Assembly (NCBI GenBank): GCA_964106645.2
Contig: OZ067039.1
DNA: 64,000 bases
DNA from: Podarcis pityusensis
Lineage: Eukaryota
Strand: one strand, 5' to 3'
The notes under the pieces were generated by a model. That model was given only the letters and a program-made list of their open reading frames with translations. It did no database searches and had not been told where the DNA came from. The position numbers and the translations under genes are program-made. Below are positions 5,614-53,315 of the stretch, piece after piece; position 1 is the first letter of the stretch; every line of letters begins with the position of its first letter.

Positions 5614-5762
5614 TATGAACTGGCCACAGGACGGTTCCCCTATCCCAAATGGAATAGTGTATTTGATCAACTGACACAAGTAGTCAAAGGAGACCCACCA
5701 CAGCTGAGTAACTCAGAGGAACGGGAGTTCTCCCAAAGTTTTATCAACTTTGTCAACTTGTG
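5614..5762 (+). CDS. MAP2K4: MAP2K4 coding exon (exon 9 equivalent)
   Basis: ggtgtag|TATGAA...TTGTG|gtgagt; 149 nt; YELATGRFPYPKWNSVFDQLTQVVKGDPPQLSNSEEREFSQSFINFVNL(C). Confidence 0.97.
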
Positions 5763-6681
5763 GTGAGTATGCCTCGCTCTGGGGCTCTTCAGGGCATTAG
5801 TAAGTGGTTCTGGCTCAGGCTTCCAACTCTGTCCCTCAGCAACTTGCATGTGGCAGCAACATCCAAGAGTATTCATGTTGCTGGAAATGGTGCATTTTTC
5901 CTCCACTGAGGATGAAAGTGGGTTGGGTGGAGAAAGCTGCAGTATGAAGAGCCACTTGCAAGCCTTAAATTAATGCCACATTTCCTGCATGTGTGATGGA
6001 AGTGGTGGCTTGGAGAGATTTAGACATGTCCTTCCCTAGTTGAGTTGCCACTCAACGTGAAGGCAACGCAGATCTTCCTTACTGACTTCTCACATTTGAC
6101 AAATAGCACTGGGATGGTAGGGAGGCCTTTCCTCAGGCTGTGTCTGTAGCAAGACCTTTTGTAGCCCCTAATTACATATTGGAGATCCGTTTGTTGTTGC
6201 CTCCTCGATATATGATAGAGGGAGCAGCGATTGCATCAAATAGAGTGCACACTGTAAACTGCAGAATATATCTTTGTAGTGCCTCCTGCTGGGAGTTTGC
6301 CTACCTGCAGGTTTGTAGCTGTGATATTTTAAATGAATGTTGATAAGCTGTGTTTGCCTCATTGCAGCACAATTATTACATTGTCCTGTGGATAAAACGA
6401 AGTGGATCTGAGTCGGTTGCTCTTGTTACATTTAGCACACCAGAATGGGCTAAGGAAGCGTTATGTGAGCAACTTAACATCGTTTAGTATATTAGTGGTG
6501 ATTTGGAGCCTTGCAGGAGCTAGAATAGTTAAAGATACCTTTAAGATGAAACAGTTGCCTTTGAGGCTATAATCACACAAAAGAGAAAGCGGAGGAGTGG
6601 TATTTAAAGGAGAATGATCAATGTACATTTTACAAACTGATTAAAGCAAGACAGTGGCTTCAAATTCACTACAGTGTTGAT

Positions 6682-6716
6682 GTGCTGCCACCTGTTGGTT
6701 TGACATTTTTCTGCAG
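6682..6716 (-). promoter_or_regulatory. CTCF-like site with upstream module in a MAP2K4 intron
   Basis: The minus strand reads CTGCAG-aaaaatgtcaaa-CCAACAGGTGGCAGCA: a near-consensus core with TGCAG 12 nt upstream. Confidence 0.55.
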
Positions 6717-7623
6717 TGTTTTTAAAATGCAGTTAATTAGCCTCTTGAGCTGATTTCTTAGAGGCAAATGGGCAGGACCAGACTGTCTTTAGTTCAGTGA
6801 TGTGCTTTCCTCCTTAGAAAGGTGGGGAGCAGGTTTTGTGTTAAGTAGACAAGGCCCTTGAAAAGCAACTGTGGCATTTTCCTCTCTGCTGAGCTCTCTA
6901 TATTCATTTATGGCTGTTTATGGTAGTGCAAGAAGGATCTTTTTTAAGAATCCCCCTGTGTTTGTTTATGAAGGGTTAATTTCATGCTGCACAGGTCTTG
7001 AGAAAGAAGGAAAAGGAAACTTCCCTGATGCCAGGAAGTTGTTGAAAGGCTGTGTACTTCCTGCATTCAGAATTTTAAAACAATGGAGTGAGAGACGTAT
7101 TGATAGGTTGCAGACTTCAGAGTGCTTCTGGTTATATTGCAGCATTTTCTTGGTTACCTGCAGACCAAGAACAGTCCTGGGATTCCCAATACCTACAACA
7201 TACTCTGAACCTAATAGGCAATACAAAGGTGAAAATACAGTGTCCAGGGCTTCTGCATAGTTTGGTAGAAAGAGGAATTTCAATAGTGCATCTTGTCTTG
7301 CGTGGCTCATCTGCTGAAATTCCCACTCCTATACAGCTTGCAGAAGCCCTGTCCTCTTTTTAAAATTTATTTCTTTACCTGATTGCCCTGGGTGAAAGAG
7401 AAGGCAGGTCACTATCACTGTATGAGTTGGTTTTATAGCCACAGCCTTTGGACAGAGAGGTGACTTAAATGACCATTAATGATCACCATCATCCATATAG
7501 GTGCATTCATGCGATAGAATTGCAGACTCTGACAGTGTGCAGTGTCTTAACTGCCCAACACTTAATTTCAGATGTTTTTCTGCTAATGTTCTGTCACCCT
7601 AATCCTCTTACTGATCTTTTTAG

Positions 7624-7669
7624 CCTTACAAAGGACGAGTCCAAAAGGCCAAAGTATAAGGAGCTTCTG
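7624..7669 (+). CDS. MAP2K4: MAP2K4 coding exon (exon 10 equivalent)
   Basis: ctttttag|CCTTAC...CTTCTG|gtgagt; 46 nt; (C)LTKDESKRPKYKELL. Confidence 0.96.
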
Positions 7670-7759
7670 GTGAGTATGATGGGATATGTGAATGCATGAG
7701 ACTAGAACTGGCTAAGACTTTAAGGACTTTAAAGACTTTTAACTCTTTTGAAGCTTGGT

Positions 7760-7832
7760 ATTATTATTATTATTATTATTATACCCCACCCATCTGACTG
7801 GGTTGCCCCAGCCACTCTGGGCAGCTTCCAAC
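7760..7832 (-). mobile_element. L2-like 3' end with an (AAT)n tail
   Basis: (TTA)n ATACCCCACCCATCTGACTGGGTTGCCCCAGCCACTCTGGGCAGCTTCCA; an L2-type tail with a short tandem repeat also occurs at 63810-63868. Confidence 0.5.
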
Positions 7833-8340
7833 AGATATTATTAGGCATTCTGTAACAGCACCCATTGCTATTCCCATTTTGTGAGATATGAGCTGCATTC
7901 TACCTGTTTAGTGCAAACAGTGAGGCTGGGCTTGCTATTTTGTCTTTTGCTGTGGTGAGCAATGAAGCAAGCCCACATTTAGTTCATTCAGGGGTTGTGT
8001 TGTGTATCTAGAGAATTAAAGTTTTTTTGCAATTGCACAACATATTTAATTGGTATAATTAAAATTTGATTTTGGGATTTGTCTGCTTCACCAATTATCC
8101 ATTTCCTCCCAAACGTAAGGCCAAGGGATGTACTGTACCCCACCTGCCTTCTCTGTGTGTATATGCCCATGTTGATGCTTGGACCCCTTCTACTGAATCT
8201 TGTGAGTTGGTACCTCAGCGCAGCAACTCATAACACCTGTTAAGTTGCATGGAAGTACCTTTGGGAGCTCACACGTCTTCTGGAGACACCTTCTGTGCTC
8301 CAAAAGTGAGACTATATTTTGTTCCCTTCTCTTCTACCAG

Positions 8341-8454
8341 AAACATCCCTTCATCCTAATGTATGAGGAGCGAACAGTGGACGTTGCGTGCTATGTTTGT
8401 AAAATCCTGGATCAAATGCCAACGACTCCGAGCTCTCCAATGTATGTCGATTGA
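8341..8454 (+). CDS. MAP2K4: MAP2K4 last coding exon with stop codon (C-terminal DVD docking region)
   Basis: ctaccag|AAACAT...GTCGAT TGA; KHPFILMYEERTVDVACYVCKILDQMPTTPSSPMYVD*. Confidence 0.97.
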   Translation, partial: KHPFILMYEERTVDVACYVCKILDQMPTTPSSPMYVD

Positions 8455-16762: not shown

Positions 16763-17331
16763 TCACCACTGTTGTAAATGCAGGTCCATGGTACTGTTCA
16801 AGTTGAGATCACTAACATCTAAGAAATCAATGTTGAAGATGCTGGGCCCAGTGGTGGTGAGGGAACCGAAACCGTTGGCTGAGCTAGGCGGAGTGAGGTC
16901 CAGCCATTCCATTGTTTCCCAAGGAGACTCTGTGAAGCTCATGTGCAAACCAGTTCCTTCCCCAGAAGAGGGAGACAGCTGGGTCTCCATGGGCGACAGG
17001 GGAGTGGGCAGGATCTCGTGGGGTGTCAGCAGTTCATCGGCAGCTTTGTTGGAAAATCCTTCCATCACCCCTTCAAAGTGTGGTTCTTCACCCACTTTCA
17101 GTAGGGTGATTTCACTCGACCGCCCCAGAGGGCTGTGGGAATTTAACAAGATTTCCAGATGACTGTTGTTGCTGCTAGGGCAGTGTTCAAAGGACAGCTG
17201 ACCTGAGGGGCCTTGCTCAAATGAAGCAGATGTCTTCAGTAGCGAGGAAGTGCCGGAGGTCCCCGAAGACACTGTTATCTGAGGCACCTTCTGAAGGCAA
17301 GGGCGGTCCTCTTTGGCATTTGCAGGCATTT
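16763..17331 (-). CDS. MYOCD: MYOCD last coding exon (transactivation domain) with stop codon
   Basis: caaacag|AAATGCCT...CAGTGG TGA; (E)MPANAKEDRPCLQKVP...ESPWETMEWLDLTPP...FNIDFLDVSDLNLNSTMDLHLQQW*. Confidence 0.97.
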
Positions 17332-17859
17332 CTGTTTGCAAACAAAAAAGGCTCATCAAGAGCAGATCTACAACTTTACTATGCCATGCACCCCAAGCCA
17401 CCCTACAACTTGAAATGTTATAAAACATCTTGCACATCAGTGATTACTGCCTGTCAAGACGGCAGACTCCTTTGTCTACAGTATGAGATACCCAATGGAG
17501 CACATCGTAATTCACTGTTGCTGTCAGAGAAGTGTGTCCTACTTTTCTTTTGGTTGGATATAGCTTTATGTGATGCTATGCTAGAGTAACTTGGCATACC
17601 AGGAATCTACTTTGTGGTTCTGTGAGCCTGTAAGGTGTAACTAGGAATGCCTGGGTGAGAAGAACAGAAAGATCGCAGAAGAGCCAACAGCAGATTGTGG
17701 TCAGGGAACACAGTAGGTGCTCCATCCAAGGACCGCAGGAAGGAAATCAGTAGAAGAAATTATCACTAAGTATATGTGTGTTGGCAAGAACTTGTTAAGA
17801 GGGAAAAAGATGAGTGGATGAGTATGGGACATCCTACAGCAACTAGAATCTTAATATTT

Positions 17860-18352: not shown

Positions 18353-18706
18353 GGACGCAGGTGGTGCTGTGGGTTAAACCACAGAGCCTAAGACTTGCCA
18401 ATCAGAAGGTCTGCAGTTCGAATCCCCTTGACAGGGTGAGCTCCCGTTGCTCGGTCCCTGCTCCTGCCAACCTAGCAGTTCGAAAGCACGTCAAAGTGCA
18501 AGTAGATAAATAGGTACCACTCCGGCAGGAAGGTAAACGGCGTTTCCGTGCGCTGCTCTTGTTCGCCAGAAGCAGCTTAGTCATGCCAGCCACATGACCC
18601 GGAAGCTGTACGCCGGCTCCCTTGGCCAATAAAGCGAGATGAGCGTCGCAACCCCAGAGTCGGCCATGACTGGACCGAATGGTCAGGGGTCCCTTTACCT
18701 TTACCT
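18353..18706 (+). mobile_element. Full-length Sauria-type SINE (tRNA-derived head, ACCTTT tail)
   Basis: GGACGCAGGTGGTGCTGTGGGTTAAACC...GTTCGAATCC (B box)...GGGGTCCCTTTACCTTTACCT; TSD TATGACTAGGGG at 18337 and 18707. Confidence 0.9.
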
Positions 18707-18890
18707 TATGACTAGGGGAAATTCTCTGAAATTGCCATTTTGGGTACCACCCTTCAGGCAATGAAAAGCATTGGGGCTAGGGGTTAGTGCAGACACAGCG
18801 ATCACAGTGCACCCTCTTTGGGCAGCCGGAGACTTCGCTCATACTTACTTTGACCAGAACCAACAGTCTTGCCTTAGGGATATCACCTAC

Positions 18891-23399: not shown

Positions 23400-24465
23400 T
23401 TACTTACTTCACCAAACCTTTATTAGGCACTACAAGTACTGGCCATCATAAAACATCCATATATACAAATAAAAGCCATGTAAAATATATAATTACAAGA
23501 ATTATCATTGGGATTTCTTCCTGCTAAATAGTGCCAGTCACCGCTCTAAGAGATACTATTGAGAAAATCTTAGCCACCTTTGCAGTTACTTCTGAGTAAG
23601 TGTCAGACAGATAGAATCTGATATTTTCATTGTGCCATGATGTTAGACTTCCCAAAAAAGGAGATAGCACGTGTTTACATAGCTGGTTGTACAATGGACA
23701 GTAGAAAAGGATATGTTCCACAGTGTCTGGCACGTTCAAATAACACCTGCAATGTCTATCATTTCTGGGGATGTTTAAATATCTGCCTTTGACAAGAGCT
23801 GAGGGGGAAATGTTCAGCTGGGCTCACATAAAGGCCCTGCGTTGGGCTGGAATTATTAATTTTGAGATTTAAGTGACCCTGTTATCTGGTGTATTTAAAC
23901 CATAGAACTTGGGGGAGCAAATTTTATTTACAACTGATTCGATGAATGTCCCTTAATCTAGTTTGAATATTGCAATAAATATATTGCTCACTTGAATTAT
24001 ACCAGGATTCCAAGTCAATACCAATAGATCTAATTTTGCTATGTAAGAGCTGGAACGATCTGGATGTATAAGAGTTCTTAAGCAAGTCAGAGAGCAGACT
24101 CAAAGGTTGGCAGCAAAAATGGCAACGCAGCCAGTATTTTATAGTGCTAGCCTTCATCCAGTATTCCATCACGTGTACACCTAGTTCTGCATACATCGTC
24201 TCATACTCGATTGAACTTAGGAGCCCCAGGATACATCTCAAGAAACTTGAGTGTATCTTATCTAAATCACTATTATATGCTTCTATCCATATTGGGATCC
24301 CAAAAAGTAGCTGGGATGACACTTTAGCTTGAAAAATCTGAATAGCAGCTGGTATAATTTGGTCACCTTTCTGAAAATAAAAGCAAGCTATTGCTGAGGA
24401 GTTACACTTTGCCTGTTTTATAGCACTTGTGCGATGGGTTGACCAACCTGAGTTGCTCTGCAATA
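23400..24465 (-). mobile_element. Decayed non-LTR retrotransposon 3' fragment (C-terminal RT region, Cys/His motif, 3'UTR) in MYOCD intron 8
   Basis: Broken ORFs ...IFQAKVSSQLLFGIPIW...FLRCILGL...MYAELG...KYWLR and C.C....DTVEHILFYCPLY; ends in AATAAA plus a short (GTAA)n tail; clade not determined. Confidence 0.75.
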
Positions 24466-24678
24466 AAATTTACTGCATCACCACTGTCGTCCTGAAGGGT
24501 ACAATCCTGCTGAAGTTTGGAAGAGTTGACCACACTTAAAAGGGAGAGGCCTATTTAAATTAACAGAGCTTAAAAGTGACTAATGGGCTGGAATGTGCCC
24601 CAAATTGACTGCGGCAAGAAATCAAACCTGGGTAAGGTGGAAAGGTCACTCTAGGAAACCTTTCCGTTACCAACTCAC

Positions 24679-24935
24679 TTTAGCTGCATGGAATGGGGCC
24701 CCGGATAGTTGAAGTGCTGCTGGTGCCGGTGCTGCTGCTGCTGGCTGAGGATCTGGAGCTGCAGGAAGAGCTGCTGCTGCTGCAGGAGCCTTGCATAGGC
24801 CGAGTCCATGGGCGGAGGGGACTTTTCCGCCTTCTGGTCTGGGGGAATGTACTGGTGGTACTTAAGCTTCTTCACTTTTGGCTTCATCTCCTTGGGCTTT
24901 TTGTGGCGATTCTTGCTATCGCTCGATGGTTTTGA
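24679..24935 (-). CDS. MYOCD: MYOCD exon 8 (basic SRF-binding B1 box and Q-rich domain)
   Basis: catttag|TCAAAA...CTAAA|gtgagt; 257 nt; SKPSSDSKNRHKKPKEMKPKVKKLKYHQYIPPDQKAEKSPPPMDSAYARLLQQQQLFLQLQILSQQQQHRHQQHFNYPGPHSMQLK. Confidence 0.97.
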
Positions 24936-31082: not shown

Positions 31083-31244
31083 CTTTGATGGCTTCTTTCA
31101 CAGCTGAGTCAACAGGAATGATATTCTTCTCCACCAGCTCCAGAGGACCTGGCCTAAGAGCAATTTTCTCATTTAGATTGTCTGCAAGACGGGCTCTTTT
31201 CAGTTTCATCTGAGTAGCCTGGACAGACCCTTCTGTGGCTGAAT
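31083..31244 (-). CDS. MYOCD: MYOCD exon 5 (spacer 2 and RPEL3)
   Basis: tttacag|ATTCAG...ATCAAAG|gtaata; 162 nt; (D)SATEGSVQATQMKLKRARLADNLNEKIALRPGPLELVEKNIIPVDSAVKEAIK. Confidence 0.97.
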
Positions 31245-31426
31245 CTGTAAAGCCAAATGGTAAAAATATAAATTATTCCACAAAATAACCAGCCTGTGCC
31301 ACAGCTCCTTTCCTTTTATCACTTCTAAGAAACACAGGATAAATTCTATGTCAGTTCTTTCCCAGTAATTAGAACCTGAGTGTAGCTGTAACACAAAGCA
31401 TTTCTCTTGAACCATAAAACAACTGT

Positions 31427-31767
31427 GGCTTGCCAATCAGAAGGTCGGCAGTTTGAATCCCCGCAATGGGGCGAGCTCCTGTTGCTCTGTCCCAGCTCCT
31501 GCCAACCTAGCAGTTCGAAAGCACGCCAGTGCAAGTAGATAAATAGGTACCGCTCCAGTGGGAAGGTCAACAGCGTTTCTGTGCGCTGCTCTGGTTTCGG
31601 TGTTTGGTTGCGCCAGAAGCGGCTTAGTCATGCTAGCCACATGACTCAGAAAAAACTGTCTGCAGACGAACGCCGGCTCCCTTGGCCTGTAAAGCGAGAT
31701 GAGCGCCGCAACCCCACAGTTGCCTGCAACTGGACTTAACTGTCAGGGGTCCTTTACCTTTACCTTT
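31427..31767 (+). mobile_element. Sauria-type SINE, 5'-truncated, different subfamily
   Basis: Same body as 18353 (CCTGCCAACCTAGCAGTTCGAAAGCAC...GTGCAAGTAGATAAATAGGTAC) with extra internal segments; (ACCTTT)n tail. Confidence 0.88.
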
Positions 31768-32564
31768 AACCACAACTAGCCACAGAGTGCAATGATGACA
31801 GGTGTGCTTGTAGATAAGCTTTTCTCACTGCTGATATGATATGCAGTTAATTTTAACAATGCTCAAGATACACAGAAAGTATTACCTGTACATAGTTCCC
31901 TGTAGCCAAACAAAATAATTCCAATGTTCTCACCCAGTGCACCACACCCTTTATGTGCGTCTGCATACCAGCATGGCTGAGCCACAGTTTGCTGGGGAGT
32001 GGGTAGCACACAAGCAAACAATCCTTCAAATGCAATGCTGGGCATGGAATCCTATGCAGGAAAGTCATTTCTGCAAGCCCAGTAAAAACTTGGTTTCAAG
32101 AGCTAAATGAGAATTGCAAGAAGCAGTATCTAAAAGGGAATAACTTGCTTCATGAGATGTGCATTTCCCCCCAGTTGTATAGTGTGTGCCATACATGCTG
32201 GAGCAGCAATTGCCCCAGCCAGGCTCAAATAAAACCCACCCCAGATTTGTTTATAGAATAACATCATGCAAACATCATAATAAATCAGTTCGATGTTTAT
32301 TCTTGTCCCCACCCTGAAGGAACCCAAGGTGGCAAACTAACAAAGATTACAAACATTTTAGAAAAGTTTTAAAACCTAAAATAATTCATAAGCATTCCAT
32401 AAGCAGGAGATTGCTACCAAGAAGGCCTAGATTAGGGCAATAAAAGGTGCTTTTATACCTTTCCTGAAGAGGGATCAAAAGACACTGAGGCTTACTCAGG
32501 ACATGGCAGAAGTGTCTTCTGCTGTTGGCTTGCCACAACTACAAGAAGTCCAAAACATCTAAGG

Positions 32565-32680
32565 CAGTCTCCCACAACCTGGTGCCCTCTAGAGGATTTG
32601 GACTACAATTCCCATCAGCCCCAGACCACATCGTCGATGGTCAGGGATGATGGGAGTTGTCCAAAACCCTTGTGGAAGTC
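32565..32680. repeat. Old ~110-bp dispersed repeat (GGACTACAA.TCCCATCA core), several decayed copies
   Basis: Related cores near 18116-18225, 26390-26520, 27783-27895, 60892-61020 and 62765-62885. Confidence 0.5.
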
Positions 32681-33150
32681 TAGACTATTAACATAGAACA
32701 GCTCATTTGCAATTCGGTGGTGTATTTCTATACTTCCAAACATGTAAAAAGAAACCTCAAGGTTGTGATCCTCATAAAATCATCAATAAAATACACTGCT
32801 AACAACAAAATTACACCAACAAATTAGTAAATCAGAAATATACACTACTAAACTGGATCACCCTTGAGTAAACAAATGTGTTTTAAGTAGGTACCGGAAA
32901 TAGCAACACTATAGGTGCCTGCCTTACCAGGAGCTCATTCCAAAGGGCATGTGATGTAATACTGAAAGCCCTGGGTTTTTGCAGACATAAGATGAACGTC
33001 AGGAGTAAGCAGCACCTTTAAGAGTGTCTCCCCCAGGGATTGAAGTGACTGGGTAGGGATATACAAGATTAGGTGGTCCCAAAGATAATCTGGTTATTAA
33101 GGACTTTGTATGCGAATAGCAAGATCTTAAACTTATTCATTCAATCTTAC

Positions 33151-33226
33151 CCTGTAAAATGTGCATATCAACCAGTTCTGAGCGCTCAGGTCTGTTTCGG
33201 GTCTTGTGCTTTAAATAATCTTCAGT
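33151..33226 (-). CDS. MYOCD: MYOCD exon 4 (RPEL2; contains the internal Met at 33164-33166)
   Basis: tctgtag|ACTGAA...TTACAGG|gtaaga; 76 nt; TEDYLKHKTRNRPERSELVDMHILQ. Confidence 0.95.
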
Positions 33227-33369
33227 CTACAGAACATAAGAACAGAGATCATTACCTCACTAGCTTGATTTAAAGTGCATTAGGCAATGCTTCTTTAAAA
33301 GGATTCAGTCAGACTTGGTCTAACTGACGTTCATTTTAGTTAACATTTGTTCTTCTCTGGTAGGACCCA

Positions 33370-34045
33370 CACCAAAAGATTCAAGTTACAGGAAAAGAGA
33401 TTTCAGCTCAACATCGGGAATAATTTTCTGATGGCAAGAGCTGTTTGACAGTGGAACCGACTAAGCAGAAGCCATCTGCATGCTTTAGTTGAGATTGCAG
33501 GGGTTGGACTAGATCAGGGGTCTGCAACCTTTAAGACAAAAAGAGCCACTTAGATCTGTTTCTGAAGAAAAAAAACCTGGGAGCCGCAAAACTCGTCATT
33601 ATAAAAATAACTTTTTTGTCACTTTTTATTATTTCTTTGTTTGACCCCTCAGAATTACTCCTCCTCATAGAAATAAACATTAAATTAACAAGTTACCTTT
33701 TTTTGTGTGTGTGTTCTTCACTTCCCTTCAAAACAGTGACCAGCGTACATGCCCCCTTTCAATGCAGTGACCAGCGTACATGCCCCTTACAGTGTAGCAG
33801 GCGGGCGGGAAGGTGACGTCGGGGCGGTGCGTGACTAACGCACGCTCCGCCCCCATGCGACGTCACAGCCAGTAGAGTGCCCGCCACAGTGGGGAGTGTC
33901 GGGGCGCACAATGTGCCTCCTCCCCTCGCTAGTATCCGCCCCGGAGCCGCGGCAAAGGTGTAAAAGAGCCACATGCGGCTCTGGAGCCGTGGGTTGCAGA
34001 CCCCTGGACTAGATGACCCTCAGAGTCCCTTCCAATTCTATAATT
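33370..34045 (+). mobile_element. CR1 LINE 3' fragment, split by the hAT MITE
   Basis: AAGTTACAGGAAAAGAGATTTCAGCTCAACATCGGGAATAATTTTCTG...GTTTGACAGTGGAAC and the CR1-type tail GCAGGGGTTGGACTAGATGACCCTCAGAGTCCCTTCCAATTCTA. Confidence 0.75.
33515..34006. mobile_element. hAT-type MITE nested in a CR1 3' end
   Basis: Perfect 15-bp TIR CAGGGGTCTGCAACC/GGTTGCAGACCCCTG; perfect 8-bp TSD GACTAGAT (33507 and 34007). Confidence 0.9.
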
Positions 34046-35805
34046 ATCCCACAACTTTTTGTCTGGATACTGAATGTCTGTAGGCTAGGACTTGGATCTT
34101 TTAAGAGCTCCATTTGTGCAAACCCGAACTTTTGGCAGGTTTCCCAGAATGCAAGTAACTTATAATTGGCACGAAGGAATCATAATACTACACCAACTTT
34201 TAATATGCACTATATTCAGCACAATTTCAGTTTAGCTTACGGCACAGATCTTAAACATGTGTAAAATTCAGCCCTAAGTACCCAGCTGTATCAAAGTAAA
34301 TTTATTTACTTCACTAGAACTCATCTAACAGCAGCTTTGTTGTGTTTTAGCTAATAGGTATTTAAAATCCACCGCAATTAAATTGGTGTAGTTTCATGTT
34401 ATGTGTGAACAAAGATTTTCAAGTAGGCTTCCCATCAGTCCCTCTCAACCAAACTAGCTGTGAAGTGTTCTGATATTGCTTCCCCCTGCCAGCCCCCAGG
34501 CCCCTCCCCAGCTGAATAAAGGCTTAGAATATATTTTTGGTTCTACTTCTCCCTAAACGAATGTAGTTTAGGGCTTTTGACTCATATAATCCTTTTTTCT
34601 TCCAGGCAATCGGCCAGTAGAAGCCTTTGAAGGGAGACTGTGAGATATTAACCTATGCCTGAACATTGAAATATAGGGTACTTCTAAGATACTTCAGACT
34701 TCTTGAAGTGTTCTAAGCACATTTATTTTTCACAGGGGGCTATACATCCTTCCTGACGTTGGTCTTGAATTTTTGCAGGACACTCATATACAATAATGTA
34801 ACATAGGCATCTTCTACATGTGTGCAGGTTTTTGATAAATGCCTATACATAAATTTCATCAAGAGTTTTGAAAGTAAGTTAATATATATGTACACAGAAT
34901 TGTAGAGACTATAAAAGGATTCACTTGTTTGGCTTCCTGACCTAAATTTCCTCTACATATTAACTCCTATACCATAAACAGAGGAAATAAAGGATAAGGT
35001 GCACCACAAGTTCCCATTAAATGGGACAAGTTAACAGACGGCAACTACTACTACTAATACAAATTCTGAGCAAATCAAGTCATAGTTTCTAGGACATTAC
35101 AAAGTTACCATATACTATTGTCCATCTAGCCCAGCATTGTCTATTGTAACTAGCAGCATATCTCCATATCTCTTTACCAATCTTGCTGCTGGTGTCATTG
35201 GACCCGGGTCGTCATCCGTGCAAAATACCAGCTTTATGAATGAGCTATAGGCCTCTCTATATATGGATTGTATTCTTTATATAAGAGAACTGCTATCAGT
35301 CTTGGAAAAGGCTTCTCTAAGCAGACAGTTCCCCAATTTCCCCCTTTGCCAAACTGCAAAATTCAGAGAAACACAAATTTTGAAGGATGGCCTTGTTTAA
35401 GTTTGCGTATTATTTCTGAAATTGCAAATTAGGTAGGTTCGCTTTAAATGTAAACGGAATCAAATTTTTGCTCCACACCCCCCACACCCCGCTACACCTC
35501 TAGTAAGAGCCTTGGCTGGAGACTTGCAGCAGGGAAAGCTTGAGAATATCTTGCACTTTCTCTAAATAAGACCAGATCACCAGCTCTTCCACTAGTGGAG
35601 TAGGTGGGGGAGGGAACTGCCTCTTAATCTTATCTTTCTCATTAGCTTTAATTAACAGCGCCTAAACTCTCCTTGATAACTGGTGCCAGCAAGAGACAAG
35701 AGTACAGGTTAAGAACAGCCCAAAAGCACTCTGCAGTGTCACAAGAAGAGAAGGGCAATATGGTGTACTGCAGACATCAGGCACAAGGTTTCCTACTGGG
35801 GAGAT

Positions 35806-35808
<3 letters not shown>

Positions 35809-35872
<64 letters not shown>
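35809..35872. repeat. Compound (TA)n(CA)n microsatellite
   Basis: Seen directly. Confidence 0.95.
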
Positions 35873-35873
<1 letters not shown>

Positions 35874-36083
35874 CACAAAGCCACTTTCTCATGGGACATG
35901 TGCCAATTAAGTTTAGAGCCCTGTAAAGGTGTGCTAAAGGTATAGTAGTATCTGCAGAAAGGAATCCAGTGATTTTCCAACATTCCATTCACATTCCTGC
36001 ACGTGGCCACAACCTTCTCAGCAGCTAGTTAACCTGCATGATGCCATCTCCAGCCACCCCCTCTGATGCCTACCCAGGGTTAC

Positions 36084-36139
36084 CTTGGCTCTCTCCAAGC
36101 TCTTCTTTTGCTCATGGAAGGGAGAGGGGTTTTTCAGCG
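36084..36139 (-). CDS. MYOCD: MYOCD exon 3 (RPEL spacer 1)
   Basis: attgcag|CGCTGA...GCCAAG|gtaacc; 56 nt; (P)LKNPSPFHEQKKSLERAK. Confidence 0.94.
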
Positions 36140-39100
36140 CTGCAATCAGAAACAGACAAAAGCACAATAAGCACAGCGAGCAACAAGTACATTTTCAGCA
36201 TTGTGCCATTGTAACAAAGTTCAACAAAATTAGCCACACAAATCAGCCAGCCCCTTTATTGCATCAAATGAAAATGGATGAGAAATAACCAGGCCAGGCT
36301 GTGGCAGTGGAAACGAGGCAGAGAGGAGCAAAGACACAGATGGTAACTAAAGCAGGGGGAGAGCTGAGAGTTGTTTGGAGACAGCCATCTTTTTAAAGGC
36401 ATCTTAGAGGGAGGTGAGTGGCCTGGCGGTAAAGTGCAGCCTGTCCAGTATCCAAACACATTGGGTGAGAAGCTCAAGAGACAGAGCCTTGCACGTTAAT
36501 CCTAGACGCATTTGGGGAGCTTGGTTTCAGTGGGGTTGACTTCCAGCTAAAGTGATCAGTCGGGGAGGAAGGATCTAGTTATGGAGAGGACCAGCAGTGA
36601 GATTAATGTCCAGAGGAGACCCGCTAATAAAATTGAGAGTCTGAGTCTCATTGTATCACATGGGTGTCAGCAGCACATACAAAATCAGCAAGAAGGATAA
36701 ATTGCTCCATTCTGTCACACATTCTTTTCAACAATGAGCTCTCCTTCCTTCATCCATTGGCAAAATCTCCTTCTTGATATAAGAGAGTGAGCAGAATGCT
36801 CCAGTAAATTCTGATACTCTCCACCAGTGCCTGCTCTGTGTTCTGAACCACATTCCGGATATTTGTTTGGAGGACATATTTGTTTCTTCAGATTGCAGTT
36901 CCATCGAGATAAAAATAGAGGGTCGCCTCCTCCACCACCATATCTTAACGCCCTCCAGTGATGAACATGCTGTTAGGATTGAATCACAACTCTGTATTTG
37001 TCCTACAGGAATAAATGGCAGCAACGAAAAGGTAGGGGCAAAACCTGCTCCTTGAACTCCACTCCCCAACTGGCAGTCCAGCCTTTTCCTATCTGCATAG
37101 TCTCATCATGGAGCCTTTTTTCCCTCTCCCTACCATCAATGTTGGCTAGTTCTCACTGACTAGGAAATTTGTACTTCGTTGTACTCTATCACCAAGGGGG
37201 AGGCTGTCTCAGTGTGTTCACAGGCTTTGTGAAGATGACTTGGCACACAGTTCCCAGCTCATTTGGGTCTCACTCTCTGAACCATTTCTGGGTCTTGCTA
37301 TTTCTTCTGTGTCATGGGTTAAGGGCATGAGAGGAAAGCATCGCTCTTCCCAAAGCTGCGCAAAAGCTCTTTATCTCATGGCTGAATTGTAGCCTAGTTA
37401 TTTATACAGTGAAAGTTGTCCAGAATCCAAAAATAAAGATTGCGGACACAATTCTCATCTCCATTTTAATAAGTGTCAAATTATTGTTTGTTTGTTTTCT
37501 TTGCACAAAATGTGACTGGGAGCACAGTCAAACTGTGGGATAGGAAAATCAAAGGCCAAGAGAATTATATATTGTGTGATTTTTATTTATTTAAAAACCC
37601 TCTTTTTTTCAATAAAATAAAATAAACAAAACAACCCAAACTGCTTTTAACAAATGGCTTCTCTAGTCCCCACATGCCAGTTGTTACCTCCCGTCACCAA
37701 ATGGATTTATTGTCAGAGTTATGAGTCATTTTGCATTGACGCAATTGGATGAGCTAATTTATTATTTGCCTCCTGTAGTTAACTAGATCCTAAAGCACGA
37801 TAGATATTTTGTTTTATTGAAGACTCAAACCCTGCGCAACTAAAAGGCCAAACAAAAAGAAGAAGAAGATCTTAAAGTGAGTGAGTAAATAAAAAAGTGT
37901 CACAGAGCACCAAAGGCAAAGTTAGAGGAGACACCTCAGTGGTAAAAGACGGTTGTAAAACAGATTCTGGTAAACTTCATAGGGTGAAAACCATCCTACT
38001 TTCAGATATTGCAAGAGCAATCTGAGAAGCTGGTGCACCAGTGCAGAGGCCTGGTTCACAGCTAATGGGATGGTGGGAAAAGCTTTGAGAGAGCATCCGA
38101 TAAAAGTAATCTGCAAGGCAGAAAACCAGTGTTGTTCTTCTGCACAGCTCAATTAATGCACATTACAGAACGCTAAAGTTATGTAGGATCCATGACAAAG
38201 GATGGACGCAAAACAAAGGGACCTTTGCCAAGAGGATTGATGTGAATTCTGCAGACAAACCAACAGCATATGGTTGTCTGAGAAAAAATCTATGTCAATA
38301 TGGGGTTGAATGTGTTGGTTCTTCTATGAGGGAAGTCGTGGCAGTAGTGGAAGTTTAGAAGTTAAAGTCTGGAGTGAGAGTACAATGATGAAAGGAGAAT
38401 TACACACATAGGATTGTATCCAAAGTAGCATTGAGTAATATTTTCTGACAGAACAAGGATTTCCACTTGCACAGCTGGACTTACCTCCTCTCCCCTCTTG
38501 TGTGCTTCCTAAATCTGTTTTAGGGGCTCTCCAAACTCTCCAGCAGAGTAGATTTGGGGAGTGAGTTGGACACAAAGGAGGAAAAAGTCCCAATGTGCAA
38601 GCGGAAATCCTTGTGCTGATGGACCACGTTAGTTGGATACTGCCCCACAACACAGACCTGTCCTGAGTCTTCAGTTATCACAATTTTTAAGAGCATGTGC
38701 ATTGAATAATGAGTATTGCAATTAAACATAATTAACTTTCTCGTTGTGCCTGCCAGGAAAGGCTACTGCTTTTGGCCATAGGGGTGGGAAGTGTTTTGTT
38801 TTCACAGAGAAAATAAATCAGGAAATTGCTATAATTTTAAAAGACAAATAATAGATTTGAAATCTTATAGTTTATAGCCATTTTGATTTTAAAAGAGTGA
38901 CAGGAAGTTTGAATGCTCTGGTTTGAGAGGAAGGGTCCCAGTGAGAGTGCCACCATGGTGTTAAGAGAGGCTTGTCAGCTGTGTGACTTGCTTGCCAATG
39001 ATAAATAGTGACAAATCAATAATGACTAAAACCTGTGTCTATCACCCAATCATATGAATCTTTGTTCATATGAGTTTGGGTACGTTGATTAATTTATTGA

Positions 39101-41369
39101 TTAAACTTGCATACATTTGCATATGAGATAAAAACGGTTCTAAAGAAAAACGTACTTTGTTTTAAAATTATGCCCACAAGTGGCACAGTAGGCCTCATCT
39201 TTGAAGAGCTGTCCCCTGTTCTATCACACACAGAAGGACATGACACTGCTTGACATCTGAAACTTCTTTAAGTACTTATGTTAAAAACTGATAATGTAGA
39301 TATACCAATTTGGGGGCAGCTTGTCAGCTGATCAAATTAAACCTATTAACCTAACCAATTAACTGACTAAATCCTGAACCCCTACTAACACCACTAACTA
39401 ACTGACTGCATTTACACACCACAGTAAATGCTTTTGCCATAAACACAGGTAATGGTTTAAACATAAACACACAGGGGCTTCCTGTTTTGATCATTCCCTA
39501 GCAGGAAGAACAAAACATAATCCCTAGTGTTACATCTGAATTGGAGATAGCAGTTTGTTTCACTCCAAACAAAGTTTGTTCTTGACTTACCAATCAAACT
39601 TAGTTTGAGTGAAACAAATCACAATCCTTGGCTCAGATATTATTAGGGATGTAAGAAAACATCATTTTCTGTTCTGACCTCTATTTGTTGCATGCAGCAC
39701 TTCCACTGCGCTTTGTCTTCCACAAAAAACCACTTTATCTGTATTTCCATCCACTGTGTCAAATTATGTACCTTATGTAATTTACATGCAAATTATGTTG
39801 CCGTAATGTTATTCCCCCCTATTCATTTCAACGCAAAGGAAACACAATGCAAGTAGGGGTGGGGAAAAGTAATAATTTATGTATCATCTGTGGACTGAAA
39901 GCAGCAACAACAACAGGTGGATTTCCATTTTGGACATGGGATGAATAAGTGAACATTGGCAATTTCCACTCCTGTTTCCATTCTTCTTGGAATTCCGCAG
40001 CATCCCCAGATGTAATGTTAAGCCAGAGATTGTGCTCATGCTTGTAATAGGGGAGAAGCAAAGCAGGTGTGATCTCCACATTCACAACAAACCATTAACT
40101 GTGGTTTATATTAATTGTGAACTGGGCAATGAGGCTTCTATATAGGCTTATGAGCCTTGTCAATGTGAGAAAAGGCATCAAAGGAGAAGGCAAAACAAAA
40201 ACCCACCCTTAAATTAGGAGGGCTGGAAGACCTAATACTATGGACATGTGCAGAAAACATGTGATTTATTTGCTATATTTATATATGCTGCTCCTCATTT
40301 TTTGTGAGGTTCTCAGTGGTCTCCTATCCAAGTCCACACTCACTTAGTATCAATCAAGTTACATCATGTATTCCCAAGGGATTTGCTAGGCAGTGACTGC
40401 AAACGGGATGTAGTTGGGTGTAATTCTCTAACTACCTACCACTGATGAATATGTGAATGCCCAGAAACAAAAGTAATCAATGGGATCTCTTCCTACAACA
40501 TAGGAAGCATGATTATATTAAGGGCAATTACCTTGCCCTTTCTAAGTTTTGCATAAACCGATTAGGAAGGCAGTCGAGAAATGGGCAAAGATGTGCGCTT
40601 TTTGTCAAACTCACCAGACAGGTATGAGATGCATGTATTTATCATGGGTCCTTGGGCGTTTTTTATATCCTTCAAAATGCATCTAGGGAAATGTCATATC
40701 TGAAATAGCCCTAAGCACATACTAGTTGAAGCCCATGGTCAAGCACTGTGTCCTAGAAAGAAAGATGTTTGGGACTGTGGAAGAGGGGGAGATGAAATAA
40801 GGTGAAAAGTCTAGAGTCATGGTGGTAACCCATTTGCCTTGGACGCCTAAACAAATGCTGCTATTCTTGCCTCCATACCCCTTGCCACTTTCTTTCTCCC
40901 TCTCTTTGAGGAGTAAAATGCCTTTTAGGGGGTAAACTAGCAGCCTTTATGGGGTGTCAGAACATCCCCTGACAGTTGGCAAACACCAATGACACCTCAT
41001 TTTTGCAGAACATGACAGTTAATTCTGATAGTGGGATAGGATTAAACCTGCCAAGAACTTTGGGCAACGTATTAAATAAACAAGTCTATGTGGATCCACT
41101 CTGTCACACATAACATGCTGTACCTGCACTACATACACTGAAATGCCTCATGAAAATGCCAAACTGCTGCATGCACCATTCGTATGGAAGCGACAGACAT
41201 TCCATGCCAACAATGTAGAATGTTTTTCAGGAGGTGGCTTAAGAGGAAAGCAATAGCAGAGGCCAACTACAACATGCGGCACCCAAAGGCTTAGGCAGTC
41301 ACTGTGTGTGGCTCAGAATCAGTGTGATCCAGCAGAGAGAGAGAGAGAGAGGGTGGGTGCTTGGGGTGG

Positions 41370-41510
41370 GAGACCTGGATTCAGATCCTAGTTTGACCAT
41401 GGACTCACTGGGTGGCCTTGGGCAAGGTGTTATCTCTCTCAGTCTCAGTTTCCCCATCTGCAAAAAATTGGAATAACAATGACCTGCCTCATAGGGTTTT
41501 GCAAGGTGCC
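41370..41510 (+). mobile_element. MIR/CORE-SINE remnant
   Basis: GGCCTTGGGCAAG...CTCTCTCAGTCTCAGTTTCCCCATCTGCAAAA...ATAACAATGACCTGCCTCATAGGGTT resembles the MIR core. Confidence 0.65.
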
Positions 41511-42063
41511 CTACATCCTAAATGAGTTATGAAAATGATACAGTATAGTCTACTTCAGGAATAATCAAGCCCAAACTCCCTTTCCTGTGAGGCTCATTAG
41601 AATCCTAGATTTTGGGATGCATGTGTAAGTAATCTTCTAGATCCGAGTTTAACAGTAATTGCAGTAACAAGCTGAGTATGTGATGGCAAAAATTCCATGC
41701 AATCTGTAGTGCCGGACCAGTTGCTCAACTCAATCTCCTGCTTATGATTGTACCAGAAATAAATAATTTTTGCAGCAGTACAGACTTCTCAGGGTGGGCA
41801 CTATGTAAGAAGGTAACTCTCTGCCACAAATATTTCCTTCCTGCATAAGAGTTGATTCTTGCAGAGGTACATAGCACCAGATCTGTGTGTGCTAAAGTGG
41901 TGCACGTGTACAAGCCTGCTTTGCACTTCTTAGAATCAGAAACAGTCCCTAATGATGCAAAGTTGTATTATATTTATTTGGTGGTGGATAGTGTGACCCT
42001 CAGCTGAGGCTGCATGGGCCTGCTAGTGCATAAAAGATAAAAGTGAGAAAGCAAAGTACTCAC

Positions 42064-42129
42064 GTGGCATGATTCCCTGGCTGGCGAGCTGCTCTCGGCT
42101 TCTTCGCTGCTGCAGCCGCAACTGTAAAA
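42064..42129 (-). CDS. MYOCD: MYOCD exon 2 (RPEL1)
   Basis: ctcccag|TTTTAC...ATGCCAC|gtgagt; 66 nt; (V)LQLRLQQRRSREQLASQGIMP. Confidence 0.96.
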
Positions 42130-47409: not shown

Positions 47410-49627
47410 TATTTCTTAATTGGTCAGAAGGTGGAGGTAAGTGTGTTCTTGTGGGGTGAGCAATAGAAATCTTTAAGAATCTGTATGTAAATCCTGAACA
47501 GTATTCCAGTTGCCTTCTTTACAGTATGTGTATTTCATTCCTCCCTGTAATGTATGCAACATCTCACCACCACCAAAAAATAGCTGCACCTCCTCTTAGA
47601 TTACAGTTTTGGCAATGTAGGGATGGCTGCTACTTTTCTACATTATCTACAATACCCTCCGCACCTTATAAATCGGTTGTCTTTCTCCTTGAGCATCTGA
47701 AACAACCCTGACATAATCATGGACAAGATAAGTGGGGATAAAAAAGAAAATCAGACAAGTCTTAGCCTACCTTGAGGACCTCAATGTACTTTGAGGAGTG
47801 GGCAGAATGTATTGGGGGTGGGGGGAATCTACAGTAAGAATTCCAGTAAAAAAAATATAATTATTGAAATTCAGAGTGTAAAATAAAACCACCAACTCTG
47901 ATTTTTAGAACCCCAAAAGTGATAATTGAAAGAACAGCATTTACTCTTAACTTCACATGTTGCTCATTCTTTTCATCAGATGTCTCTAACCTTCAAATAC
48001 TGTATTTAATTGATTATTCCTCTCTGTAACATTAGAGGGATCTTTACTCCAACTACAATGTCTTATTGCTAAAAGATCCCCTACCAGGTTCGTAATTTTA
48101 AAACAAAAACTCTACATTAACCCTAGGCGTTTAAGAAGACACTTGCTCTAACATTTAACCCAAATCTGAATTGCTAGACTATGAAATCAGCACCTCCAGT
48201 TCTTACGTCTCTCCCCACTGCCTCATAGATACTCAGGCTAAAGGAGATGGAGTACAGATGTACCGGTATTTTTTAATAATTTACACATCTGTTGCACTTG
48301 AAGATGAGCATGGGAGAGCAACTCTATCATACAGGTAGACACCTGGGATTTTGCAATTTAAGGGTCACTCAAACCAGGCAGAAGCAGTAAATATGGACTC
48401 TTGTGCTGCTTTGAGCTTTCCATACGAAAACAAATTGCACCTCGTATCTTTTGCAATTACAAGTTCTAGGGCACAAAACACTCTCAGCCAGCCCTGGACT
48501 CCTAGTCTGCATTGTGCAAAATGGGATTCATAGCATAAGACACCAGTAACACCCAGACTCATTTCATTTCAACATTTCACTATCTTGATGCTCTTGAGCC
48601 ATCAACACTAAGTTATTGATATACCAGTGGCCCAACTCACCCACTTTTCCCATTATGGCTCCACTGGAAGTCAGAGATCTCTGTTATCTACAAACCATCA
48701 AGTATCACTTCCAACAAACAATCATTTTTCAGTAGAACTTTTAAGATTCTCCAGCTATTTTATGCTAGACTCTGGAGCCCCATCTCTGAACTTACCCAGT
48801 AAGGCTGAGGCAGTGGGCCTGGGAAGTGACATTTCCTTATGCAGCCAATCAGACTGTGGCAACTTACCCAACCTGTCCCCTCACTGATGGCCAAGCAAGT
48901 GAGAGATGACCTCTAAAGGAGTTTAATGACTTCCATTTACAGCACTCCAATAACATATGGATTTGTATTTTTTGGAGACACAATGCCATGGATAGTGTTT
49001 CCTGGGAAGAGTTAAACACTTAGCAAGAGAATTCTTAGGCCAACTCCTCGTGCTTTGTCCTATTTGATTTAAGGCAATTCCATTGATATTTGGAAGGCAG
49101 GCAAAAAGAATCATTGTTTCTGTGGAATTTGTCAGGATGACCTCAGGTTTGTGTATTTATCTTTGGTAAAATAGACAAAATAAACATACACACAAATCCT
49201 AGTCTCTTAACTCAGAAGGAAGTGGGAGGGGAGAACATGCCTGCAACATCGCTGAAGATTTTTGACATATTAGATTTATACTCCACTCAGAGCAGTGGCT
49301 TGTTTTACCATAAGTTTCACTTGAAGGCGCAAGTTTACAATGTAAACAAGTCTTATCTCCCCCCCCCCCCCTTTGGCAGAACGCTATGCAAAAGAGCAGG
49401 CTGGATGACCATCTAGTGGGAATGATTAGTAATAGAGTTGGACTAGTTTACCTTTGAGAACCCTTCCAACTCTGTAAAGCACATTTCCTCCCAAAGGTAA
49501 CTATAGTTAAGAGTGCTGGGAATTTCTGTTAGGCGTAAACAACAGTTCCCAGGATTCTATTTTTTTGGGGAGTGGAGGTGCTTTAAATGTATGGTATGTA
49601 TGCAACCTGTGATTATATGAAAAACTA

Positions 49628-49972
49628 TGGCGCTGTGGGTTAAACCACAGAGCCTTGGGCTTGCTGATCAGAAGGTCAGCGGTTTGAATCCCCGCAACGG
49701 GGTGAGCTCCCGTTGTTCGGTCCCTGCTCCTGCCAACCTAGCAGTTCGAAAGCACGTCAAAGTGCAAGTAGATAAATAGGTACCGCTCTGGCGGGAAGGT
49801 AAATGGCGTTTCCGTGCGCTGCTCTGGTTCGCCAGAAGTGGCTTAGTCGTGCTGGCCACATGACCCAGAAGCTGTATGCCGGCTCCCTTGGCCAAAAAGC
49901 GAGATGAGCGCCGCAACCCCCGAGTTGGCCACGACTGGACCTAATGGTCAGGGGTCCCTTTACCTTTACCTT
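49628..49972 (+). mobile_element. Sauria-type SINE, near full length
   Basis: Closely similar to the 18353 copy from TGGCGCTGTGGGTTAAACC to CCCTTTACCTTTACCTT. Confidence 0.9.
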
Positions 49973-52900
49973 ATACTTTGTTTTATTTACTTGCTGTTAG
50001 AACAACACACTTTTTCAGTCATAGGCATGCAAAACAGCTTGCAACATTCATTAAAACTATACAGGCATCATTTTGAAAGCACAAGAGCAAACCTTGGCTG
50101 CAACATCTGGTTAGCAAGGAAAGAGCGTAACCAAGGGCCCGAAATCAGGTTACATGCTAAGCCAAACCGTGGCTTATTTCAGTGTGTTATGGGAGTAAAA
50201 AAAAAAAAATATTGGTGAGGAGAAAAGTGCAAGTGAGCTCCTTTACAAGTGCCTATGTGTTTGTGTGATCCTAGTAAGCTATAGTTCGGCTCACTGTGAT
50301 GTGTGAACGAGGCTAGATAAAGCCTTATGCTTGGTAGGGGACAACCTTACCCCAGAAGATGGTGGCAACTGAAGCAGCATTTTTCCACTTTAGCCTAATT
50401 CCAGGAACAGGTAAATATGGGGGGAAACATTCCCTTTAAAATGCCAGGACCGTGTAGGTTTCTAAATGTCACAATCAACACTTTGAATTTGGCCAGGAAA
50501 CATGTAGGTAACATGCAGAGCTCACCTAGAATTAGTGGCATGGCAGCTCTGTGATCAGCCCCAGACTAGGTGAGCTGCTACATTTTAAAGCAACAGAAGT
50601 CTTAAGGCAGACGCCTACATAGCGCAATACAGTAGTTTGAGCTGAAAGGTTACCAAAGCTTACAAGAAAATGGTTACATCCTTGGATGAAGATCATGGTA
50701 ATATTCGCTGGTCTCCAAACTATAATTCAAAGGAGGTCCTCAGTACGTGCTCTAAATAGGTCACCGGAGGTAGGATTGCAATGTACACGCCTGAACTGAT
50801 GAAAGAACCACGGCTAATGGCTTATTTCAGTCTGTATACATTAATTGCCGATATTCTCATGTAGGACGTTTATGTATCATTTATATTGGCAGTAGAAATA
50901 GTCCATGATAGTAAGTCTATGATACTGTATCATACATTTTATGTACGGTAACTGTACATACAGAAACCATAATTTTTGTCACCTACAATGGTTAACGCTA
51001 GCGACAGCTTCCCACCTGTACCTCAAACAAAGGCTGCTCTCTTATGTACACTTTTTGGGGAGTAATCCCCATCAAACACAATGGTAAGAAATTCATATAC
51101 TGACTATATTTGTTATACAAAGTACTATACGCATCAAGCATTCTGCTTATGTAGTGCTACAATTCCATTTTGGAAAATTTGGGATGAAGTACAAATCGAC
51201 ATGAAGGACCTGTGCTCTATTTCCATGCTGCAGCTAAGGTCTATCCTCTTTAAACATCAAGGTTAGTGTTTGATCACCATGTGTATCATGCAAGAGACAC
51301 CAGAGCAAAGATGCTCTTATGTTTAAACCCTTTATTTAAATTAACACTTTTCAGTTTATCGCACTCAATATGCAAGTGACCCTCAAACACATCTGCCCTG
51401 TAGCTTGGGAGTCTATGGGAATATCCTTGGGATTCTAACCGTTTCCTGCTGCTGCTGTGGCCTCATTTTTAGTGCTATACTAATATTCTAAAATGCTAAC
51501 TGTAAGGATCAATGTGGACAGGTTTCTACTTACAAGAAAACGTTTTTTCATAAAAGTAGCACCAAAATAAGATGGGTAACAGTCACAACAGCACCCTGTA
51601 TTTCTTCACCCCAAGACAAAGAGGTGGTAATTAAAATGTGGGAAAGAGATTGGAAGAGTGCCCCTACAAAGCGACTCTGTTAGAAACTCTAAAAGAAACA
51701 AAATTTATGGGACTAAAAGAGTCATAAAGTTTACTTTTAGCCTAGAATCATTTGAAAAATATGCGATCCTACCATCAACTCTGTAATCTCTCAACCCCCA
51801 ACACCCCGTCTTTAAAAATAACACCGAAATGAGTCTTAAAAACAATACTGGCTCACTGTAAAAGAATGCAATGGCCTGGAGAACCATCCCCCTTGTGTCC
51901 TCCTCGCTTCAGGAAGGTGGCAGTATTGCTTTGGGATTACTGGGTTAGAGAGCAAGCCCTCTTCTTTCCAGTGAATGGCACTGTACCATTACCATAATAC
52001 ACCAATGGATTCTGAGGAATGACTTATTCTCATGAAATGTGATTACAGTGATAGAGAAACCACAGCAAAGTACTGGACCCAAACTGTGTAGAACCCCAGC
52101 CAGCCAGAGTCTCTTCATTTGTACATACAACTCTGGAGTTTTCAACTAGCTGCCAATTTTATATTTTCTAAGCAAACACTGCAAATGACCACCCAGCTGC
52201 CTCAAACGTCTTCATAAAACCCTAGTGGATTAGCAACAGTACGATAAGTTTCTGATCTTCTCGTTATCTCTGGTGTACTAGAGATCAAAAACCGCCACCC
52301 TTCCCCAAGCTGAGTGGGTGACATTCTGGAATGGGTGAAACATACAGGAGAACGTGATTATGCAGTACATTCACTGGATGCACGCAGCAACAACTCGGAT
52401 GACAAGAAAAGAGTGCTATTTAAAATAATAATTGGTATAGCCAAACCCAATAAGAATAACGTATAAACACAAGCATGCACACAAGAACACACACTATACA
52501 ATGCTGAATTTATCTAAAGTTGCTGTGACCCTAAGCTTGCAATAGGACTGATTTCTATGTGACTGTCTCCTGCCTTTATTCACTATTACTCACCTTTATT
52601 CACGTTGGATGTCCTCAAAGAAGATGCCCCTAGTGGGGCTTCAACACACTCTGGAGATCTGGTACATGTTTTTTTGTTGCAAAGCTTTAGAAAATGGCAA
52701 TCAGTCGTTTGGCTCTAGCTATATTTCTCTGGTGATGTCATTTTAAATACTTTGCATGTTCCATTTGTTTTTTGTACTTCTAAAAAAAAAATCGATGCCT
52801 TTCTGCAAATTCATGTTTGTCCAATTAGTCACAGAACCCTAAGGCTGCCTGCCTGGATGCTGGAGTAAAGCATCAAGCTAGGATATACAGGACAGCATCT

Positions 52901-53260: not shown

Positions 53261-53315
53261 CTGATCTGAATTTGCTCCGAATCAGCATAGAATGCTCAGA
53301 CCCCAGAAGTGTCAT
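53261..53315 (-). CDS. MYOCD: MYOCD exon 1 coding part (cardiac-isoform N-terminal MEF2-interacting peptide)
   Basis: atcaccATGACACTTCTGGGG...AGATCAG|gtaggg; MTLLGSEHSMLIRSKFRS(V). Confidence 0.95.

Follow-up and report, generated by a model that had tools for sequence, protein, structure and literature searches.

Myocardin (MYOCD) is a master regulator of heart and smooth muscle. Its mammalian form has been described as a weakly actin-binding and constitutively nuclear protein, and the question raised by the locus studied here is whether a lizard myocardin behaves in the same way. The locus is a 64,000-nucleotide stretch of contig OZ067039.1 of Podarcis pityusensis (assembly GCA_964106645.2; hereafter the window), in which a myocardin gene on the minus strand carries an RPEL domain that resembles that of its paralogues MRTF-A and MRTF-B. 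Since a nearly intact second RPEL motif (RPEL2) is retained here as well as in sharks, turtles and birds but degraded in placentals, myocardin outside mammals is likely still partly under actin control. For the lizard protein, which is known here from sequence alone, stronger G-actin binding than in placental myocardin is likely and we lean slightly towards partial gating by Rho/actin signalling. A preliminary description of the window had suggested such a response from the translation of exons 2 to 5, and splice sites and reading frame confirmed this translation: the peptide given there is the product of the four joined exons, which all have AG/GT splice sites, form one open frame and have 31083 and 42129 as the outer ends of exons 5 and 2, respectively. 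Splicing in P. pityusensis is read from splice signals and database gene models. The motif RPERSEL is encoded by exon 4 and RPGPLEL by exon 5. The features concerned are:

42064..42129 (66 nt), minus strand: MYOCD exon 2, encoding RPEL1 of a non-canonical RR type, assigned by splice sites, translation and contact residues
36084..36139 (56 nt), minus strand: MYOCD exon 3, encoding spacer 1, assigned by splice sites and translation
33151..33226 (76 nt), minus strand: MYOCD exon 4, encoding RPEL2 and basic element B3 (KHK, as in MRTF-B)
33200..33202, minus strand: Thr codon at the position of MAL I122, a hydrophobic-cleft contact, common to Podarcis and Zootoca
31083..31244 (162 nt), minus strand: MYOCD exon 5, encoding spacer 2, basic element B2 and RPEL3 of the low-affinity GP type

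In MAL numbering, which is used throughout, RPEL2 contacts actin through L118, K121, I122, R125, P126, R128, L131, I136 and L137 (PMC2583105). The P126A exchange cuts RPEL2 binding 16-fold, a double alanine mutant of helix 1 (L118A/I122A type) abolishes it, and the weak actin binding of mouse myocardin has been put down to I122G and P126S (PMC2583105). The lizard RPEL2 retains eight of the nine contacts, including R125, P126 and L131, and combines Thr122 with P126 where mouse MYOCD has both exchanges. RPEL1 keeps all of its contacts (L74, L78, R81, R82, R84, L87, I92 and M93) and spacer 1 keeps F102, H103, L109, E110 and R111. Compared to mouse and human MYOCD, the lizard protein thereby retains R84 and M93 in RPEL1, ER in spacer 1 and Y117, P126, R128 and L131 in RPEL2. 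With MRTF-A and MRTF-B it shares the RPEL1-spacer1-RPEL2-spacer2-RPEL3 layout and these eight RPEL2 contacts; B3 is as in the MRTF-B of its own genome and B2 is identical, so that the bipartite import signal of B3 and B2 is present by sequence. It differs from these paralogues in having Thr for Ile122 and Asn for S98.

Over spacer 1 and RPEL2 the lizard gene is identical to MRTF-A at 32 of 43 positions and to human MYOCD at 23 of 43, which bears out the MRTF-like character claimed for this unit. It was the only region nearer to MRTF-A than to human MYOCD in a region-by-region comparison. Against a profile built from 65 distinct MRTF rows, which themselves score 65-98, the lizard RPEL2 reached 79.4, compared with 45-80 for 11 squamates and 18-52 for 11 placentals. 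Pfam detected a pair of RPEL stretches in the proteins of the lizard, a bird, a chimaera, an anole and a python, a single one in three placentals and a sea bream, and three in two MRTFs. The case had been built on RPERSEL as a canonical RPxxxEL. The motif is there, but it is a weak guide to affinity because its Glu (E130) makes no actin contact and E130A is without effect (PMC2583105), and we rejected the literal match as affinity evidence. The exact match is moreover lacertid-specific: most non-mammals have Asp at the Glu position, and R128, on which the apparent identity with the MRTF-A motif depends, occurs in 1 of 14 squamate rows, most of which have His. Of the sequences given there for comparison, human MYOCD matches P0412 and MRTF-A matches the lizard genome's own MRTF-A; the mouse MRTF-A crystal construct has Ala where the latter two have Ser. 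What had been overlooked is the Thr for the cleft-binding Ile (I122) and the Asn for the ERK site S98.

To place the lizard sequence, vertebrate myocardins were aligned as one row per species or genus from the best 120 of 852, 352 and 345 matches, a non-exhaustive sample in which the mammals are placentals only and which leaves out monotremes, marsupials, crocodilians, chicken, Xenopus, mouse and zebrafish. L118, I122, R125, P126 and L131 were all retained in 43 of 44 birds, 6 of 8 turtles, 11 of 13 anamniotes, 9 of 14 squamates and none of 65 placentals (a one-residue insertion puts one placental row out of register; read by eye, it fails too). The 11 anamniotes are four cartilaginous fish, the coelacanth, the bowfin, three elopomorphs and two otophysans; the exceptions are an arowana and a caecilian. 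No placental row has I122 and 11 of 65 have P126. R84, M93 and R111 are altered in all 65 placentals, whereas R84 and M93 are retained in all 64 non-mammal rows, which also have Arg or Lys at position 111. Non-mammal rows retain an aromatic residue at 117, too. By parsimony, this distribution makes the intact RPEL unit ancestral. The MRTF-like RPEL1-spacer1-RPEL2 unit is thus likely, as judged from these alignments, the ancestral state of jawed vertebrates, and the degenerate form of mouse and human derived. With placentals as the only mammals in the sample, the alignments put no date on this loss within mammals.

The proposal that actin insensitivity is a mammalian innovation therefore holds for the derived nature of the mouse and human form, but not for its uniqueness. 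RPEL2 is missing from 72 of 72 euteleost gene models (53 genera; P0121-P0216, P0451-P0484), as read from the models and not from genomic DNA, so by these models its loss is not uniquely mammalian. Exon 2 is joined to exon 5 in 23 of the 72, and the other 49 also lack RPEL3 and B2, in which case the known import signal would go too. Exons 3 and 4 together measure 132 nt, exactly one 44-residue repeat. Badger and mink isoforms (P0430, P0431) skip exons 3-4 in frame and so have the junction seen in euteleosts. Placentals and euteleosts likely reached constitutive activity independently, the former by substitutions and the latter by loss of the RPEL2 exons. The MRTF-like state is likewise not a lizard peculiarity, since it is found in birds, turtles, the coelacanth, the bowfin, eels, otophysans and cartilaginous fish. 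An ancestral actin sensor that was lost more than once is the better framing, and birds would serve better for testing it; we judge actin gating of myocardin in birds and cartilaginous fish to be fairly probable. A further separate loss is seen in fish proteins that form the sister clade of myocardin in our tree and that we take to be MASTR/MAMSTR-like: these have a similar first exon, and unlike the lizard protein their RPEL1 and RPEL2 have already decayed. The MASTR-like proteins of lungfish and fish P0244, P0249 and P0272 are 700-890 aa long and keep an RPEL3-like motif alongside the decayed RPEL1/2.

By analogy with MRTF-A, G-actin would load onto RPEL1-spacer1-RPEL2 of lizard myocardin, where it would mask the B3/B2 import signal, favour Crm1 export and repress activity, and actin polymerisation would release the protein. 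Actin bound to RPEL2 of MRTF-A covers B3, in competition with importin (PMC2964165), and swap experiments showed that the RPEL1-RPEL2 unit sets regulation (PMC2583105). Gating may depend on the isoform, and three N-termini are involved:

53261..53315, minus strand: coding part of MYOCD exon 1, MEF2-binding N-terminus, 17 of 18 residues identical to human
G000:C2:39045341-39045494 (L013:1500-1653), minus strand: alternative MYOCD first exon with a motif like nuclear export signal (NES) 1, 45 kb past the window end
41409..41457, minus strand: candidate 49-nt cassette exon between exons 2 and 3, with AG/GT

The upstream first exon ends in the correct phase with a GT donor and aligns, NES1 stretch included, to the exon before RPEL1 in 8 of 8 MRTF-A/B rows (p<=0.003, 2000 shuffles). 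The NES1 of MRTF-A is encoded before RPEL1 (PMC4963197), and an exon of this type ahead of RPEL1 is a further trait shared with MRTF-A/B that sets the lizard gene apart from mouse and human MYOCD. Among the lizards, snakes, turtles and birds 33 entries begin with it, against none of 209 mammal entries, a set that the query biases towards exon-1 isoforms. The main annotated lizard isoform begins with the MEF2-binding exon, in contrast to MRTF-A/B.

Inclusion of the cassette shifts the frame of exon 1, with a stop after 65 codons. An ATG at the start of the cassette shares the frame of exon 3; its use needs leaky scanning because it sits within the upstream frame, and restart at the Met of exon 4, as in mammals, would be at least as likely and would drop RPEL1 and RPEL2. 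The cassette is conserved across lizards and snakes: its product is carried by isoforms annotated in Podarcis, Zootoca, Anolis, Varanus, Candoia, Crotalus, Thamnophis and a second Anolis species, and the cassette is also present in Logan contigs of ~5.4 kb that encode the spliced protein. A cluster of CAC pairs lies within 200 nt downstream (7 of 178 gene windows are as high), as for the RBPMS-activated mammalian exon 2a (PMC6613909). Mouse and human MYOCD have a cassette of this kind as well, and the comparison with it covered position and frameshifting effect, which agree. The 49-nt cassette is likely the counterpart of the mammalian smooth-muscle exon 2a, with tissue use and orthology inferred. 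Its sequence presumably resembles a MIR-type short interspersed element. A short extra exon before exon 3 also starts isoforms of New World monkeys (P0558, P0566) and songbirds (P0087, P0094, P0102).

Gating would then be fullest with the upstream NES1-type exon. The MEF2-binding exon-1 isoform would be gated less, or chiefly repressed within the nucleus, and cassette inclusion with restart at the exon 4 Met would abolish gating. In the broadest reading, which we put forward tentatively and regard as somewhat doubtful, myocardin would be a third actin-gated mechanosensitive SRF coactivator in most jawed vertebrates, with NES1-bearing, MEF2-binding and RPEL-truncated isoforms, placentals and euteleosts being derived and squamates part-way. 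If true, myocardin alone among such coactivators would also bring MEF2 targets under Rho/actin control.

Several points weigh against partial actin gating of the lizard protein, and most of them fit an alternative in which birds, sharks and other lineages are actin-gated, squamates are losing the sensor and Ile122Thr leaves lizard myocardin effectively constitutive. Firstly, Thr at 122 occurs in none of 92 MRTF RPEL2 rows (Ile 81, Leu 7, Met 3, Phe 1). The pattern by which these rows were retrieved fixed positions 125, 131, 136 and 137, so that those columns are circular and 122 is free. An assembly error behind Thr122 was rejected, as the codon is identical in three Podarcis species and Zootoca. 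Secondly, the ERK site in spacer 1 (S98-P) is Asn in lacertids and Ser in 29 of 29 birds, 8 of 8 turtles and 13 of 13 anamniotes. Thirdly, squamates elsewhere have independently lost L118, R125, P126 or L131 (Python, Anolis, Heteronotia, Salvator and colubrids), and the RP motif alone does not track regulation since 11 of 65 placentals retain it. Lastly, spacer 1 and RPEL2 evolve in squamates as fast as in placentals: relative to the SAP exon, the rate is 2.32x in squamates (14 rows) and 2.45x in placentals (60), against 0.32x in birds (29), 0.62x in anamniotes (12) and 1.10x in turtles (13). The squamate rate cannot be told from the placental one (p=0.91), whereas it is distinct from the rate in birds (p=5e-6) and in anamniotes (p=9e-7); these are parsimony amino-acid changes per site on FastTree topologies and not a codon test. 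On the other hand, eight of nine RPEL2 contacts and all RPEL1 contacts are retained and the profile score lies within the MRTF range. Podarcis and Zootoca share Thr122 as a fixed change and show no decay of RPEL2 beyond it, and multivalent binding of actin to the RPEL domain is cooperative (PMC2583105). We consider complete loss of control in the lizard unlikely, although it is the most serious competitor. Ile122Thr probably does lower the affinity of lacertid RPEL2, and the lacertid response is therefore probably attenuated, with gating that we infer to be weaker than in birds.

A second alternative is that non-mammalian myocardin binds actin without shuttling: its own import and export traits would keep it nuclear, and actin would act as a minor or nuclear repressor, or the RPEL unit would serve importin or ARP5. 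On its own the RPEL domain does not drive export, for which several NES elements outside it cooperate (PMC4963197). The MEF2-binding exon-1 isoform is without the NES1 exon, and the NES1-like anchor appears decayed in birds and snakes. Hayashi and Morita (2013) are reported to have described export differences. Furthermore, B3 lies within RPEL2 (PMC2964165) and the N-terminus of myocardin is bound by ARP5 (PMC3941051, PMC9900090), so the RPEL unit could instead be conserved for B3-dependent import or for contact with ARP5. The literature searched, as far as its texts were accessible, yielded neither binding nor localisation data on a non-mammalian myocardin. However, conservation in birds and fish covers the hydrophobic actin contacts and not the basic residues alone, placentals keep the basic triplet (B3) while their RPEL2 contacts decay, and it is the RPEL1-RPEL2 unit to which the swap experiments trace regulation (PMC2583105). 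This alternative seems less likely still, and partial gating by actin remains our preferred reading.

The gene itself is a true MYOCD orthologue. Podarcis lilfordi myocardin (P0001, 939 aa) maps onto 13 exons in the window, ten of them at 100% identity; the other three drop only where the alignment overruns the exon edge. Exon 1 begins at 53315, and coding sequence runs to about 16763 in the final exon. Downstream of the RPEL exons are:

24678..24935 (approximate ends), minus strand: exon for the B1 basic and Q-rich SRF-binding region, placed by mapping of P0001
20994..21944, minus strand: large exon with SAP domain and leucine zipper
16763..17332, minus strand: last coding exon, transactivation domain and myocardin-type C-terminus

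B1/Q, SAP, leucine zipper and the myocardin-type transactivation domain are all present, and these are shared with mouse and human MYOCD together with the MEF2-binding exon 1, the exon structure and RPEL3. The assignment to MYOCD by both termini agrees with the identities: exon 1, so close to human MYOCD, matches MRTF-A at 4 of 18 positions (4-5 of 18 across MRTFs), the SAP exon matches human MYOCD at 141 of 184 and MRTF-A at 83 of 184, and the C-terminus at 49 of 60 and 18 of 60, respectively. A tree without the RPEL domain (a quick IQ-TREE search of 34 rows, with MRTF row labels assigned in this analysis) placed the lizard gene inside a 16-row myocardin clade with human MYOCD, with a support in the approximate likelihood ratio test (SH-aLRT) of 94 and of 99 for the tetrapod subclade. 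Exon 5 has three matches in the genome, which are this gene and two loci on other contigs that read, by sequence likeness, as MRTF-A and MRTF-B. The large exon was present in 19 sequencing runs, none of which is on record as RNA.

That the gene is not myocardin, or that its RPEL exons were recently converted from an MRTF paralogue, is highly improbable: spacer 1 and RPEL2 are nearer to MRTF-A/B than to human MYOCD, but nearer still to bird (36 of 43) and chimaera (34 of 43) myocardin, and the state is common to cartilaginous fish, the coelacanth, turtles and birds. Tree, exon 1, C-terminus, MAP2K4 linkage and the separate MRTF-A and MRTF-B loci likewise speak for MYOCD, and a misannotated MRTF or MRTF gene conversion was rejected.

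In the literature searched (titles and abstract starts, with few subscription journals covered), no report was found that deals with where non-mammalian myocardin localises or how its RPEL motifs are conserved. In reviews, RPEL3 is given as the one canonical RPEL motif of myocardin and the protein as constitutively nuclear, with no taxon named (PMC8079280, PMC8199744). Weak actin binding or constitutive nuclear localisation is also given with the taxon unstated elsewhere (PMC3941051, PMC9900090, PMC3928398), and the accessible parts of PMC9343278, PMC9287330 and PMC4048911 add nothing further on the taxon of constitutive myocardin. The sequences have long been public and the reading of an ancestral sensor appears unreported in the literature searched. 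Papers on chick and Xenopus myocardin reportedly print alignments that probably show the intact motif. If constitutive myocardin is placental only, studies of heart and smooth-muscle development in chick, turtle and many fish deal with a regulator that is wired in another way, and myocardin would have parted from the MRTFs recently and more than once. Chimaera or bird, lizard, carnivore, mouse and human would form a graded RPEL2 series for how a gated coactivator turns constitutive.

The neighbourhood of the gene agrees in part with its identification by synteny:

8341..8454, plus strand: last coding exon of MAP2K4, convergent neighbour of MYOCD

The 3' exons of MAP2K4 lie on the plus strand at about 800-8454 of the window, so that MAP2K4 does adjoin MYOCD, but in convergent orientation, and the nearest candidate for a gene with BAR and RhoGAP domains is 2.1 Mb from MYOCD. 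A motif of ARHGAP44 was not found in the 20 kb downstream, which hold MAP2K4 exons instead, and a search for the ELAC2 family across the genome gave no match. We take MYOCD to be linked to MAP2K4 and ARHGAP44 in human, and relative to that order the convergent MAP2K4 and the distant BAR-RhoGAP gene suggest a local inversion. RhoGAP matches of one BAR-RhoGAP-like family (G000:C10:29.94 Mb, C14:24.24 Mb and C2:41.06 Mb) occur on all three contigs with a myocardin-family gene, with BAR matches beside them on C2 and C14, which is consistent with an old paralogon. Two long frames in an intron, at 23527-24469 (minus strand), resemble a fragment of a long interspersed element of CR1 type. Short recurring repeats lie near 18400-18800, 31440-31760 and 49500-50000 of the window.

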